DNA from: a virus
Taxonomy: Duplodnaviria > Heunggongvirae > Uroviricota > Caudoviricetes
Virus record (IMG/VR): IMGVR_UViG_2698536535_000007
Coordinates: 1-8,413 of that record
Direction: 5' to 3' (one strand)
Length of the DNA stretch: 8,413 nt
In this document: positions 1,275 to 8,413 of the stretch, in pieces
Layout: every line of letters starts with the position of its first letter
Numbering within the stretch: position 1 is the stretch's first letter
Notes under the pieces: generated by a model
What the model was told of the DNA's origin: nothing
The model's input: the letters and a program-made list of their open reading frames with translations, nothing else
The model's database searches: none
Position numbers and translations under genes: made by a program

Positions 1275-1411
1275 CCATCAATCACCAGATGCTTCGTGCT
1301 GCACAGAACAAAGCAGTAATAGCCAGATTTATTGGTGATTCAAAAATGTGGCTTGAAGCAAATAAAGCGATGAAATCAGCTATCAACCTTCCGTGGTATC
1401 GCAGGAAATGA
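1259..1411 (+). CDS. kil: Kil-like small protein (host cell-division inhibitor homolog), 50 aa
   Basis: Not in the ORF track (under 60 aa). SD GGAGG (1250..1254) ahead of ATG 1259. Product MRNEIAINHQMLRAAQNKAVIARFIGDSKMWLEANKAMKSAINLPWYRRK. The segment IARFIGDSKMW resembles lambda Kil as I recall it (IATFIGDEKMF). Position directly after cIII matches lambda order. Confidence 0.5.
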   Translation: MRNEIAINHQMLRAAQNKAVIARFIGDSKMWLEANKAMKSAINLPWYRRK

Positions 1412-1578
1412 GTTTTACAGATAACTGGTCAGACGAAGAATTCATTCGTCAGATGAAAGAATTAATCGGTAACGAAGGAGATATTCATGTCACTTGCAAC
1501 CACAGTGAAGGAGAGCAAGTTACAGAGACGCATGTACACGCAGCAGGCGTTAATGTATCGCCAGAAGGGAGATCGTGA
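1408..1578 (+). CDS. Hypothetical acidic small protein, 56 aa (alternative A of two overlapping out-of-frame ORFs)
   Basis: ATG 1408 overlaps the kil-like stop (ATGA coupling) but has only a weak, close AGGA. Product MSFTDNWSDEEFIRQMKELIGNEGD... Overlaps ORF 1487..1657 in another frame for 92 nt. Confidence 0.35.
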   Translation: MSFTDNWSDEEFIRQMKELIGNEGDIHVTCNHSEGEQVTETHVHAAGVNVSPEGRS

Positions 1579-1657
1579 AGGTGTTCGCGTATTTTTAAAT
1601 GCGGCAAAGACTGAAGTATTAAATCAGCGTTATTTCCTTGGGCCATGTCCATTCTGA
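1487..1657 (+). CDS. Hypothetical basic small protein, 56 aa (alternative B; occupies the position of an accessory recombination gene before erf)
   Basis: Not in the ORF track. Strong SD AAGGAG (1474..1479), 7 nt before ATG 1487. Product MSLATTVKESKLQRRMYTQQALMYRQKGDREGVRVFLNAAKTEVLNQRYFLGPCPF. Ends 10 nt before the erf start. Confidence 0.4.
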   Translation: MSLATTVKESKLQRRMYTQQALMYRQKGDREGVRVFLNAAKTEVLNQRYFLGPCPF

Positions 1658-5728: not shown

Positions 5729-5947
5729 ATGTACTTGACACTTCAGGAGTGGAACGCACGCCAGCGACGCCCAAGAAGCCTTGAAACAGTTCGTCGATGG
5801 GTACGCGAGTGCAGGATATTCCCTCCTCCGGTTAAGGATGGAAGAGAGTATCTGTTCCACGAATCAGCGGTAAAGGTTGACTTAAATCGACCAGTAACAG
5901 GTAGCCTTTTGAAGAGGATCAAAAATGGGAAGAAGGCGAAGTCATGA
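5729..5947 (+). CDS. xis: Excisionase Xis, 72 aa
   Basis: Product MYLTLQEWNARQRRPRSLETVRRWVRECRIFPPPVKDGREYLFHESAVKVDLNRP... matches lambda Xis as I recall it. Track ORF 5639..5947 is an in-frame 5' extension across the terminator and pI site and is rejected. Confidence 0.93.
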   Translation: MYLTLQEWNARQRRPRSLETVRRWVRECRIFPPPVKDGREYLFHESAVKVDLNRPVTGSLLKRIKNGKKAKS

Positions 5948-6995
5948 GCGCCGGGATTTACCCCCTAATCTTTATATAAGAAACAATGGATATTACTGCT
6001 ACAGGGACCCAAGGACGGGTAAAGAGTTTGGATTAGGCCGAGACAGGAGGATAGCAATCACTGAAGCTATACAGGCCAACATTGAGTTATTTTCAGGACA
6101 CAAGCACAAGCCTCTGACAGCGAGAATCAACAGTGATAATTCTGTTACGTTACATTCATGGCTTGATCGCTACGAAAAAATCCTGGCCAGCAGAGGAATC
6201 AAGCAGAAGACACTCATAAATTACATGAGCAAAATTAAAGCAATAAGGAGGGGTCTGCCTGATGCTCCACTTGAAGACATCACCACAAAAGAAATTGCGG
6301 CAATGCTCAATGGATACATAGACGAGGGCAAGGCGGCGTCAGCCAAGTTAATCAGATCAACACTGAGCGATGCATTCCGAGAGGCAATAGCTGAAGGCCA
6401 TATAACAACAAACCCGGTCGCTGCCACTCGCGCAGCAAAATCAGAGGTAAGGAGATCAAGACTTACGGCTGACGAATACCTGAAAATTTATCAAGCAGCA
6501 GAATCATCACCATGTTGGCTCAGACTTGCAATGGAACTGGCTGTTGTTACCGGGCAGCGAGTTGGTGATTTATGCGAAATGAAGTGGTCTGATATCGTAG
6601 ATGGGTATCTTTATGTCGAGCAAAGCAAAACAGGCGTAAAAATTGCCATCCCTACAACATTGCATGTTGATGCTCTCGGGATATCAATGAAGGAAACACT
6701 TGATAAATGCAAAGAGATTCTTGGCGGAGAAACCATAATTGCATCTACTCGTCGTGAACCGCTTTCATCCGGCACAGTATCAAGGTATTTTATGCGCGCA
6801 CGAAAAGCATCAGGTCTTTCCTTCGAAGGGGATCCGCCTACCTTTCACGAGTTGCGCAGTTTGTCTGCAAGACTCTATGAGAAGCAGATAAGCGATAAGT
6901 TTGCTCAACATCTTCTCGGGCATAAGTCGGACACCATGGCATCACAGTATCGTGATGACAGAGGCAGGGAGTGGGACAAAATTGAAATCAAATAA
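5925..6995 (+). CDS. int: Tyrosine site-specific integrase Int (lambda-type), 356 aa
   Basis: Product MGRRRSHERRDLPPNLYIRNNGYYCYRDPRTGKEFGLGRDRR... is near-identical to lambda Int as I recall it. Catalytic R (VTGQRVGD), H-x-x-R (HELRSLSARLY) and H...Y (LLGHKSDTMASQY) are present. SD GAGGA (5914..5918). Start overlaps the xis end by 23 nt, as in lambda. Confidence 0.96.
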   Translation: MGRRRSHERRDLPPNLYIRNNGYYCYRDPRTGKEFGLGRDRRIAITEAIQANIELFSGHKHKPLTARINSDNSVTLHSWLDRYEKILASRGIKQKTLINYMSKIKAIRRGLPDAPLEDITTKEIAAMLNGYIDEGKAASAKLIRSTLSDAFREAIAEGHITTNPVAATRAAKSEVRRSRLTADEYLKIYQAAESSPCWLRLAMELAVVTGQRVGDLCEMKWSDIVDGYLYVEQSKTGVKIAIPTTLHVDALGISMKETLDKCKEILGGETIIASTRREPLSSGTVSRYFMRARKASGLSFEGDPPTFHELRSLSARLYEKQISDKFAQHLLGHKSDTMASQYRDDRGREWDKIEIK

Positions 6996-7129: not shown

Positions 7130-8413
7130 GTGAACACATTTTCAGTTTCCCGTCTGGCGCTGGCATTGGCTTTTGGCGTGACGCTGACCGCCTGTAGCTC
7201 AACCCCGCCCGATCAACGTCCTTCTGATCAAACCGCGCCTGGTACCTCTTCTCGCCCGATTCTGTCGGCAAAAGAAGCGCAGAATTTCGATGCTCAACAC
7301 TATTTTGCATCCCTGACACCAGGTGCTGCAGCGTGGAATCCTTCCCCGATTACCCTGCCTGCGCAACCTGACTTTGTTGTCGGCCCGGCGGGCACTCAAG
7401 GTGTAACGCATACCACGATTCAGGCGGCGGTAGATGCGGCAATTATCAAGCGTACCAACAAGCGCCAGTATATTGCCGTGATGCCTGGTGAGTATCAGGG
7501 AACGGTATATGTCCCTGCCGCTCCGGGTGGAATTACTCTGTACGGTACAGGTGAAAAACCGATTGATGTGAAGATTGGGCTTTCCCTTGATGGTGGCATG
7601 AGCCCTGCCGACTGGCGTCACGACGTCAACCCGCGCGGCAAATATATGCCAGGTAAACCAGCGTGGTATATGTACGATAGCTGCCAGAGCAAACGCAGCG
7701 ACAGTATCGGTGTTCTCTGCTCTGCGGTCTTCTGGTCACAAAACAATGGCCTGCAACTGCAAAATCTGACCATCGAAAACACGCTGGGCGATAGCGTAGA
7801 TGCAGGTAACCATCCGGCGGTGGCACTGCGTACTGATGGTGACCAGGTACAGATTAACAACGTTAACATTCTCGGTCGTCAGAACACCTTCTTTGTCACC
7901 AACAGCGGTGTGCAGAACCGTCTGGAAACGAATCGTCAGCCGCGTACGCTGGTGACCAACAGCTACATTGAAGGGGATGTGGATATCGTTTCTGGTCGCG
8001 GCGCAGTGGTGTTCGATAACACCGAATTCCGCGTGGTGAACTCACGTACTCAGCAAGAAGCGTATGTGTTTGCACCGGCTACGCTGTCCAACATTTACTA
8101 CGGTTTCCTCGCCGTAAACAGCCGTTTCAATGCTTTCGGTGATGGTGTGGCGCAACTGGGCCGCTCGCTGGATGTTGATGCCAATACCAACGGTCAGGTG
8201 GTGATCCGTGATAGCGCCATCAACGAAGGTTTTAACACGGCTAAACCGTGGGCCGATGCGGTGATCTCTAATCGTCCGTTTGCGGGTAATACCGGCAGCG
8301 TAGATGATAACGACGAAATACAGCGCAATCTGAATGACACTAACTACAACCGCATGTGGGAATACAATAACCGCGGCGTGGGTAGTAAAGTGGTTGCAGA
8401 GGCGAAGAAGTAA
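7130..8413 (+). CDS. ybhC: Host lipoprotein YbhC (pectin methylesterase-family fold), complete, 427 aa
   Basis: GTG start with SD GGAG (7120..7123). Lipoprotein signal MNTFSVSRLALALAFGVTLTAC with lipobox LTAC. Recognised as E. coli ybhC, the gene flanking attB-lambda on the gal side. Stop TAA is the last codon of the window. Confidence 0.9.
   Translation: MNTFSVSRLALALAFGVTLTACSSTPPDQRPSDQTAPGTSSRPILSAKEAQNFDAQHYFASLTPGAAAWNPSPITLPAQPDFVVGPAGTQGVTHTTIQAAVDAAIIKRTNKRQYIAVMPGEYQGTVYVPAAPGGITLYGTGEKPIDVKIGLSLDGGMSPADWRHDVNPRGKYMPGKPAWYMYDSCQSKRSDSIGVLCSAVFWSQNNGLQLQNLTIENTLGDSVDAGNHPAVALRTDGDQVQINNVNILGRQNTFFVTNSGVQNRLETNRQPRTLVTNSYIEGDVDIVSGRGAVVFDNTEFRVVNSRTQQEAYVFAPATLSNIYYGFLAVNSRFNAFGDGVAQLGRSLDVDANTNGQVVIRDSAINEGFNTAKPWADAVISNRPFAGNTGSVDDNDEIQRNLNDTNYNRMWEYNNRGVGSKVVAEAKK

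Follow-up and report, generated by a model that had tools for sequence, protein, structure and literature searches.

Two small open reading frames overlapping out of frame between kil and erf in an HK022-like prophage: frame-by-frame evidence for two likely genes and an incidental overlap

In phage P22, the small protein Arf aids Erf-dependent recombination and is not essential (Poteete et al. 1991, cited in PMC12315714); the roles of Arf and Abc1 are described in PMC12315714 as still open. HkaM of phage HK620 is the product of an orphan gene located upstream of sak4, which was first labelled 'arf'. According to PMC5928155, HkaM is not needed for Sak4 stimulation in recombineering, SSB alone being enough. 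Closer counterparts of the locus described here are found in HK022 (AF069308), in which HK022_42.1 and HK022_42, corresponding to ORF1 and ORF2, are 171 nt each, overlap by 92 nt and differ in nothing substantive from the pair analysed here, and in Sf6 (AF547987), in which genes 30 and 29 represent a second allele of the pair (allele B, 159 and 171 nt, with an 80-nt overlap). The Sf6 pair differs from ours in the ORF1 tail, which is shorter and of different sequence, and in the recombinase encoded downstream, which is Rad52-like rather than Erf. The HK022 and Sf6 copies of both ORFs are annotated as hypothetical, and both ORFs are also annotated in several mEp/HK phage records. The overlapping pair is already known from GenBank records; literature searches retrieved no work on the function of gp42 or gp42.1, the names by which the HK97 counterparts of ORF2 and ORF1 are known.

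The window, i.e., the whole stretch of 8,413 nucleotides that was analysed, has about 99% DNA identity with HK022, and the locus belongs to the early-left (PL) recombination module of an HK022-like prophage of E. coli. All genes of interest lie on the + strand. The kil gene (1259-1411) encodes a 50-residue product that matches PF06301 Lambda_Kil in Pfam (1.7e-20) and phrog_2055 in PHROG (1.2e-35); Kil is annotated also in HK022 and HK97. The stop codon of kil (TGA, 1409-1411) is fused with the ATG of ORF1 in the tetranucleotide ATGA. ORF1 (1408-1578, 56 residues) extends from ATG 1408-1410 to TGA 1576-1578, and ORF2 (1487-1657, 56 residues) from ATG 1487-1489 to a stop codon at 1655-1657, in the +1 frame relative to ORF1. 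The overlap (1487-1578) involves ORF1 codons 27-56 plus the stop codon, and ORF2 codons 1-31. Re-reading of the sequence bore out the coordinates of the two ORFs and the 92-nt out-of-frame overlap reported in the first-pass annotation, as well as its description of the start regions. ORF1, which starts on the kil stop codon, has a poor Shine-Dalgarno (SD) sequence, the sole element being AGGA (1403-1406) at 1 nt from the ATG. In ORF2, a near-consensus AAGGAG (1475-1480), which falls within ORF1 codons 23-25, is well spaced at 6 nt before the ATG. The ORF2 frame is closed upstream by TAA at 1463-1465.

Downstream, the ORF2 stop codon is separated by 10 nt from the ATG of erf (1668-2273), which encodes a 201-residue strand-annealing protein (PF04404 ERF, 3.8e-44; phrog_155). 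The next gene in the recombination module (2273-2656, 127 residues) encodes an SSB similar to HK97 gp40, which matches the phrog_44 family of single-strand DNA binding proteins (1.2e-27) and has DDSIPF at the C-terminus; HK97 gp40 is named SSB-1b in PMC12315714. An antisense ORF with a TTG start (1485-1733, 82 residues) was considered as a gene and set aside, as nothing was found in its support. Rfam searches of the whole window gave no match, and a promoter and terminator scan revealed nothing relevant inside the ORF1/ORF2 pair; a weak terminator-like hairpin is present at 1574-1589, within ORF2.

Of 5,426 complete E. coli genomes, about 1,100 carry the locus, on the content of which automatic pipelines disagree. 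PGAP annotates one ORF of the pair, and which one varies by allele; for instance, in an E. coli locus identical to ours ORF2 is called and ORF1 is omitted. PHROGs labels both families as "recombinase", without basis. The search for homologs of the two products proposed in the first-pass annotation was productive in both cases. ORF2 matches phrog_1723, the HK97 gp42 family, at 4.5e-34 (all 56 residues, aligned to positions 3-58 of the 58-position profile). ORF1 matches phrog_2123, the HK97 gp42.1 family, at 4e-40 (residues 1-52, aligned to the whole of the 52-position profile), a match that denotes annotation identity and not proof of ORF1 translation, as phrog_2123 is built from near-identical annotated ORFs. 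Searches of Pfam and NCBIfam gave no meaningful family for either ORF. The first-pass annotation had left it undecided whether one of the two ORFs is an artefact or the pair is genuine. The reading that we consider likely, with some room for doubt, is that both are real small genes, with ORF2 strongly selected, the N-terminus of ORF1 coding and the overlap incidental. A coding signal is detectable in both ORFs, and within the overlap constraint acts on the ORF2 frame alone. When frames were compared one by one, as had been suggested, conservation was evident along the whole length of ORF2 and in the first ~21 codons of ORF1, and it was not found in the part of ORF1 that lies in the overlap.

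On comparative grounds, ORF2 is a conserved and strongly selected gene. Among 1.84 billion representatives, a profile search picked out a small coherent family of proteins 56 to 60 residues long; a scan of genome contigs yielded 8 loci only. Divergent homologs, 45-68% identical to ORF2, keep the length and 7 invariant residues. Most start with MSLAT, and the C-terminal F-L-G-x-x-P-F motif (FLGPCPF in the window) is invariant. Omega values range from 0.2 to 0.4 in each half of the gene, with changes mostly at third codon positions, and 25 synonymous and 10 non-synonymous polymorphisms were counted in ORF2 among 60 E. coli-type sequences (binomial p 1e-8). ORF2 would be translated from its own strong SD; SD-like GGAG or GAGG sequences precede ORF2 also in divergent relatives (L085, L086, L099, L100 and L118). 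The predicted AlphaFold structure of ORF2 consists of two helices arranged in a helical hairpin (pLDDT 86). The ORF2 family profile matched no sequence in the PDB, and a Foldseek comparison of the model with BFVD gave none at E <= 0.001, generic helical hairpins only being retrieved.

The genomic context of ORF2 is equally constant. A strand-annealing protein (SSAP) gene is located 2-12 nt downstream of ORF2 in 23/23 loci, the window included, and phage-to-phage homology ends just past the ORF2 stop codon (query position 251 of 260). As assigned by Pfam for one representative of each SSAP sequence type among the 23 loci, the downstream genes are of the ERF, Rad52_Rad22 and AAA_24 (Sak4-like) types. 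ORF2 homologs preceding Sak4-like genes were identified in L099, L103 and Erwinia phage vB_EhrS_59. This synteny suggests that ORF2 may be an accessory or a partner of the annealing protein/SSB module, and that it would not be Erf-specific.

The status of ORF1 is less straightforward. Open frames of 56 codons are unremarkable on their own. In relatives that carry ORF2 only, base composition alone keeps the ORF1 frame free of stops for about 38-43 codons beyond the ORF2 start; hence, the case for either ORF being a gene rests on comparison with relatives and not on ORF length. Such comparisons reveal a conserved N-terminal core (1408-1473, about codons 1-22; MSFTDNWSDEEFIRQMKELIGN). Between the window and the locus of another genus, Pseudocitrobacter L099, ORF1 codons 2-21 show pS values of 0.88-0.97 and pN values of 0.18-0.21, corresponding to an omega of about 0.2 (Fisher p 2e-5), and the other two frames across the core are interrupted by stops. 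Protein-level conservation is confined to the first ~21 codons, which specify the motif W-S/T-D-D/E-x-F-I-R-x-M-K. This module, 16-21 residues long, is found joined to three distinct downstream sequences; it heads a 35-residue ORF in HK140 and SEN22, and a 60-residue ORF in Salmonella phage 118970_sal4. In L117, the ORF1-like sequence reads MSCRDMTDEQFARLMKDLG... Homology begins precisely at the ORF1 ATG where a cIII-like gene replaces kil upstream, and the NTGA start-stop overlap is kept with whatever gene lies upstream in L099, L117, L089 and HK140. This deep conservation spans about 20 codons and is based on few independent lineages (L099, L117 and L089).

According to an alternative reading, which we regard as unlikely while giving it some weight, ORF2 would be the sole gene and ORF1 an annotation artefact, the interval 1408-1486 serving as an untranslated or read-through leader between kil and ORF2, and the length of the open frame being a by-product of the composition of ORF2. 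The poor SD of ORF1, its omission by PGAP and the openness of its frame even in loci in which ORF1 is missing suit this reading. So does the frequent presence of ORF2 without ORF1 (L085, L086, L100, L108, L110, L114, L115, L116 and L118). Moreover, polymorphism in the ORF1-only region looks neutral. In the E. coli sample, 5 synonymous, 14 non-synonymous and 1 nonsense changes were counted, a pattern that equals the neutral expectation and differs from that of ORF2 (Fisher p 0.0016); the nonsense allele, found in L015, is a natural C1430A change that converts codon 8 from TCA to TAA. If ORF1 is under selection at all in these prophages, that selection is therefore weak or relaxed. The third-position periodicity and the low omega of the N-terminal ~21 codons relative to another genus, in an interval in which the other frames are closed, are at odds with an untranslated leader, as is the recurrence of the same module, in frame, ahead of three distinct downstream sequences, with its start invariably placed on the stop codon of the gene before it. 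In addition, an experimentally supported gene, arf, occupies the same position in P22, as cited in PMC12315714. We thus favour the reading in which the ORF1 N-terminus is coding, and ORF1 is probably a gene for a short acidic peptide. We infer that ORF1 is translated in a manner coupled to kil, probably by termination-reinitiation at the kil stop codon within ATGA, and its functional part would be the N-terminal ~21 residues.

The region in which the two ORFs overlap behaves differently in the two frames. Between the window and L099, pS is 0.95-1.0, pN 0.20 and omega 0.21 in the ORF2 frame, and pS 0.14, pN 0.40 and omega 2.8 in the ORF1 frame. Synonymous sites of ORF2 are saturated in the overlap, where pS is not below the value of 0.72 measured outside. 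The same two loci share 7/28 residues in the ORF1 tail and about 74% of residues in ORF2. Each of the 10 polymorphisms detected in the overlap changes the ORF1 product; in the ORF2 frame, 7/10 are synonymous. The end of ORF1 also shifts among relatives. ORF1-like products of 32, 52, 53, 56 and 60 residues were found, the ORF1/ORF2 overlap being 4, 80, 86, 92 or 95 nt long. Alleles A and B differ in the ORF1 tail (AAGVNVSPEGRS vs ESSLVSP); in the window, a stretch of this tail reads HVTCNHSEGEQVTETHVHAAGVNVSPEGRS.

These data bear on the possibility that both frames across 1487-1578 are functional and held by selection, which we consider very improbable. Overlaps of 80-95 nt do occur in four sequence types (allele A, to which the window belongs, the Sf6-type allele B, L099 and 118970_sal4), and alleles A, B and HK97 show no differences from nucleotide 1487 to about 1535. 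This invariance is however attributable to the recent common ancestry of a mosaic segment, because the flanking DNA is equally invariant. Both marks of dual coding are absent, since synonymous variation in ORF2 does not drop in the overlap and omega in the ORF1 frame is not below 1. Tails that vary in length and sequence between alleles, and overlaps reduced to a mere 4 nt in L117, L120, L101, L102 and L105, argue against dual coding as well. Genuine dual coding appears to be largely refuted by the frame-wise comparison. Conservation of one frame only across relatives had been listed at first pass as evidence against an overlapping pair; this is in essence what we observed in the overlapped part, although the ORF1 N-terminus is still conserved. 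The view that the pair would be notable as an overlap did not hold, as the ORF2 frame alone is conserved there and the ORF1 stop codon shifts among relatives. Nor is the pair new, both ORFs being present in the HK022 and Sf6 annotations. We thus return to two genes with an incidental overlap. In the window lineage, the ORF1 frame by chance meets no stop until 92 nt into ORF2, so that ORF1 carries an unconstrained tail of ~30 residues, specified by the alternative frame of ORF2.

HK97 raises a further question. It is homologous to the window over the whole interval (87.5% DNA identity), with the same position between kil and erf. In contrast to the window, HK97 gp42.1 is an 83-residue protein in which the N-terminal part of ORF1 is in frame with the C-terminal part of ORF2. 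In the HK97 annotation, gp42 begins internally within the gp42.1 frame, which implies that the normal ORF2 N-terminus is lost there. The HK97 fusion results from two 1-nt insertions located 6 nt apart, and among 71 IMG/VR and phage loci no record other than that of HK97 showed this configuration. Natural fusion proteins of ~82 residues are also on record, one of which (P0056) occurs on 36 contigs, and many natural 1-nt indels fuse ORF1 and ORF2 at varied positions. Folding of RNA from 1396 to 1530 revealed no unusual stability (z -1.0), and the ORF2 SD is not sequestered. The hypothesis that ORF1 and ORF2 are halves of one gene, either separated here by a mutation that shifted the frame or read as one through programmed +1 frameshifting, draws on the 83-residue HK97 ORF and on the ~82-residue fusions, and is to be dismissed as extremely improbable, given that the HK97 fusion requires two separate insertions, fusion junctions are scattered as random indels or sequencing errors would give, ORF2 keeps its own ATG, SD and MSLAT... 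N-terminus in all divergent relatives, even those lacking ORF1, divergent pairs feature no slippery site or conserved nucleotide block in the overlap, and the local RNA fold is unremarkable. Judged by these comparisons, the overlap is real but incidental, and is neither a case of dual coding under selection nor a frameshift device.

As a sequence feature, the pair is ordinary; what is gained is a frame-by-frame verdict on a locus on which automatic pipelines disagree, and a caution that a long out-of-frame overlap may persist without dual-coding selection. The ORF2 family accompanies annealing proteins of three different structural types (Erf, Rad52-like and Sak4-like), and for this reason we raise, as a speculation with a small chance of being correct, that gp42 proteins could serve phage single-strand-annealing modules in general as an accessory factor, a role so far unrecognised. 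The hydrophobic F-L-G-x-x-P-F-COOH tip of ORF2 recalls the D-I-P-F-COOH end of SSB, and the neighbouring phage SSB has a tip of this kind. A tip resembling that of SSB could dock in the SSB-tail pockets of host or phage proteins, and thereby recruit recombination intermediates or protect them. The Arf-like ORF1 peptide could be a partner of ORF2, and the passage of ribosomes translating ORF1 over the ribosome-binding site of ORF2 could determine how much of each protein is made relative to the other. The ORF2 family is a cheap candidate for the study or the engineering of phage recombineering systems.

Comparison with the described accessory genes changes the analogy drawn initially. HkaM resembles ORF2 in that its small gene belongs to a lambdoid recombination module and directly precedes the strand-annealing gene; HkaM was considered as an ORF2 relative, a reading that gained no support, HK620 being absent among the 60 tblastn matches listed for an ORF2 homolog. 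Because ORF2 ends next to erf, it had been proposed to be the accessory recombination gene of P22-type phages. This is unsupported by the sequence: ORF2 belongs to a different family, that of HK97 gp42, and weak likeness to Arf was detected in the N-terminus of ORF1. P22 has no ORF2 homolog. ORF1 residues 5-26 weakly match phrog_2445 (Arf; E 0.042), and an hhalign comparison of the ORF1 and Arf families gave a probability of 27% (P 6.6e-4) over 17 columns encompassing the SDEEFI motif. PF17585 Phage_Arf, which is present in every P22 Arf homolog, matches neither ORF1 nor ORF2 at E <= 0.1. ORF1 weakly resembles P22 Arf, and as a sequence link the resemblance is not significant. A family of small ORFs marked by the sequence DFDFIRAL, which precedes ORF2 in other phages, was similarly evaluated as homologous to ORF1 and discarded, since the hhalign match (P 0.026) is limited to the motif; the same family compared with Arf gave nothing. 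In organization, P22 arf, like ORF1, is a small acidic ORF located between kil and erf, the start of which overlaps the end of kil (by 11 nt in P22), and the two products have in common the N-terminal motif [FW]-S-D-E-E-F-I. ORF2, unlike P22 arf, starts without overlapping the end of the upstream gene. P22 Arf differs from ORF1 in being 47 residues long and in abutting erf through a 4-nt overlap. The positional analogy is corrected accordingly: any likeness to Arf belongs to ORF1, and not to the erf-proximal ORF2.

The DNA belongs to a lambdoid prophage and represents its early-left arm, in which cIII (1140-1274) and kil (1259-1411) are followed by ORF1 (1408-1578, + strand), ORF2 (1487-1657, + strand), erf (1668-2273) and an HK97 gp40-like SSB gene (2273-2656). 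Distal to the latter lie xis, the lambda-type integrase gene int (5925-6995) and a chromosomal ybhC-like gene (7130-8413), which we take from its translation to encode a pectinesterase-family lipoprotein; the window thus crosses the prophage-chromosome junction. The ORF1 ATG at 1408 forms an ATGA with the kil stop codon, the ORF2 ATG at 1487 has an AAGGAG 6 nt upstream, and erf starts 10 nt past the ORF2 end. ORF1 and ORF2 share 92 nt, ORF2 being read in frame +1 with respect to ORF1, and the coordinates assigned to the pair in the first-pass annotation are all correct. A strong intrinsic-terminator-like hairpin (GCCCTC...GAGGGC, then TTTTTT) is located upstream of cIII, at 1050-1075. It is the counterpart of the "putative terminator" annotated before cIII in HK97, and antitermination presumably lets transcription pass it.

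The pair is already annotated in close relatives. The interval is 99% identical to that of phage HK022, the record of which carries exactly both ORFs (HK022_42.1 and HK022_42), and the equivalent pair in Sf6 consists of genes 30 and 29. The locus is present in 1,114 of 5,426 complete E. coli genomes. PHROGs labels both small-ORF families (phrog_2123 and phrog_1723) "recombinase", a name taken over by RefSeq phage records. Pfam, fold comparison and the literature found yielded nothing in support of this label, which has probably spread from the adjoining erf.

ORF2 is a genuine gene. Its C-terminal half circulates among E. coli phages as two alleles, A (window and HK022) and B (Sf6 and CUS-3); ORF2 has 56 residues in both, and they differ largely at third codon positions. 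PGAP calls ORF2 alone in a locus identical to that of the window, and ORF1 alone in an allele-B locus. Distant homologs (45-68% identity) from Pseudocitrobacter, Kluyvera, Salmonella, Klebsiella and Erwinia phages and from metagenomes retain the start and a length of 56-60 residues, and seven residues, the terminal P-F among them, are invariant. Pairwise omega is 0.2-0.4 in either half of the gene. Of the variant sites in 60 E. coli-type sequences, 25 are synonymous and 10 non-synonymous. ORF2 stops 2-12 nt before a strand-annealing gene in each of the 23 loci checked, of which the window is one, and this gene encodes an ERF (two sequence types), a Rad52_Rad22 or an AAA_24/Sak4-like protein. 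Among phages with different recombinases, homology ceases directly past the ORF2 stop, and in many loci ORF2 is present without ORF1 upstream.

The overlap is real but incidental. The first-pass annotation had considered a genuine overlapping pair, to be judged by comparing each frame among relatives; conservation extends throughout ORF2 and to the ORF1 N-terminus, but not to the ORF1 frame within the overlap. When the window is compared with the Pseudocitrobacter prophage locus L099, in which both ORFs are present, the overlap yields an omega of 0.21 in the ORF2 frame (pS 0.95, pN 0.20) and of 2.8 in the ORF1 frame (pS 0.14, pN 0.40). ORF2 synonymous sites are saturated there, with no depression relative to the non-overlapped half. 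All 10 overlap polymorphisms alter ORF1, and 7 of them are silent in ORF2. ORF1 tails are unlike in length and sequence (...AAGVNVSPEGRS, ...ESSLVSP, ...ASPLLPSQG), and the overlap spans 92, 80, 86 and 95 nt in four lineages, shrinking to 4 nt (ATGA) in locus L117, as it does for the small ORFs upstream of ORF2 in L101, L102, L105 and Erwinia phage vB_EhrS_59. Dual coding is rejected on the grounds of the unconstrained ORF1 frame, the saturated ORF2 synonymous sites and the variable tails. Even in loci lacking ORF1, its frame stays open for ~38-43 codons beyond the ORF2 start; hence, the composition of ORF2 accounts for the long open tail.

ORF1 is probably a short gene of which the N-terminus alone is of consequence. 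Its first 16-21 codons (MSFTDNWSDEEFIRQMKELIG) are also found elsewhere: they start a 35-residue ORF in HK140, SEN22 and 21 IMG/VR loci and a 60-residue ORF in Salmonella phage 118970_sal4, the L099 homolog has 53 residues, and L117 features a 32-residue ORF with a diverged module (MSCRDMTDEQFARLMKDLG...). All of these ORFs have a start codon that overlaps the preceding gene's stop as NTGA, be that gene kil or cIII-like, and nucleotide homology begins at the ORF1 ATG. Between the window and L099, codons 2-21 exhibit a pS of 0.88-0.97 and a pN of 0.18-0.21 (Fisher p 2e-5), and the two other frames contain stops. A caveat is the neutral pattern of variation in the ORF1-only segment across the E. 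coli population sample (5 synonymous variants, 14 non-synonymous and 1 nonsense), which is significantly unlike that of ORF2. The N-terminal segment is also a rearrangement hotspot (proteins P0029, P0036, P0059, P0064, P0026 and P0031; Klebsiella phage phiKp_30, L119), featuring in-frame 21-nt tandem duplications (EFIRQMK two or three times) and an in-frame 18-nt deletion; in other prophages, deletions fuse it to the N protein N-terminus or to a cIII-like gene.

In the HK97 record, gp42.1 (83 residues) and gp42 are annotated in one frame. Alignment with the window revealed that the 83-residue form results from two single-base insertions, 6 nt apart, which join the N-terminal part of ORF1 to the C-terminal part of ORF2 in an allele-B background (HK97 1936-1950, corresponding to window ~1530-1545). 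Of 71 loci sharing Kil, none but the HK97 record and its IMG/VR copy has this configuration, which may go back to an early sequencing error or to mutation in the laboratory. Other natural fusions, of ~82 residues, derive from 1-nt indels, the scattered positions of which favour random frameshift mutations or sequencing errors over a programmed event. Programmed frameshifting is likewise opposed by the overlap itself, in which neither a conserved block of nucleotides nor a slippery site nor a stable RNA fold was found.

We propose that ribosomes ending at the kil stop would reinitiate at the overlapping ATG, producing from ORF1 a short acidic peptide whose functional part may be the conserved N-terminal helix motif. 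Translation of ORF1 in this lineage would continue in the alternative frame of ORF2 up to the first stop, and ORF2 would start independently from its own strong SD, both products being putative members of the recombination module. That ORF2 keeps its place ahead of annealing proteins of three different kinds suggests a partner common to the module (SSB, a host factor or DNA ends, for example) rather than Erf in particular.

What remains of most interest is the ORF2 family itself, uncharacterised and linked to genes for strand annealing. AlphaFold models the ORF2 protein with confidence as a helical hairpin whose C-terminal tip is flexible; structural and sequence searches gave no relative of known function. 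The family ends in an invariant ...FLGxxPF-COOH (window 1634-1654), and the gp40-like SSB in ...DDSIPF-COOH (2633-2653), a classical SSB tip; judging from these residues, the ORF2 C-terminus might mimic the SSB tail. ERF, Rad52_Rad22 and AAA_24/Sak4-like proteins and a RecT have a similar ~40-residue C-terminal module (...W..L.G.....K....Y..R..EL...AA), seen in the window Erf (1668-2273) and in loci L085, L090, L099, L101-L117, L084 (P22 erf) and L087 (HK140 recT), which looks like a common partner-binding tail that can be swapped. The module is not confined to loci with ORF2, since P22 Erf and HK140 RecT also have it.

Another family of small ORFs (~49-53 residues; ...EQYRxQQEALERQRKEE...RLKDFDFIRALYEMACPGVK) adjoins the 5' side of ORF2 in other enterobacterial phages (L101, L102, L105, L107, L109, L111-L113 and L120), ending in an ATGA on the ORF2 start. 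It has only the motif D-x-D/E-F-I-R-x-L/M in common with ORF1 and P22 Arf, and hhalign comparisons are not significant. Arf is itself encoded between kil and erf, and shares with ORF1 an N-terminal [FW]-S-D-E-E-F-I. The statistics of this resemblance are weak (phrog_2445, E 0.042; hhalign probability 27%), and a Pfam search of ORF1 gave no match to the Arf family PF17585. Arf is reported to help Erf-dependent recombination but not to be essential for it (PMC12315714). HkaM of HK620, an orphan gene upstream of sak4, is dispensable for Sak4 stimulation in recombineering (PMC5928155). By comparison with these two systems, any phenotype of ORF1 or ORF2 may be subtle.
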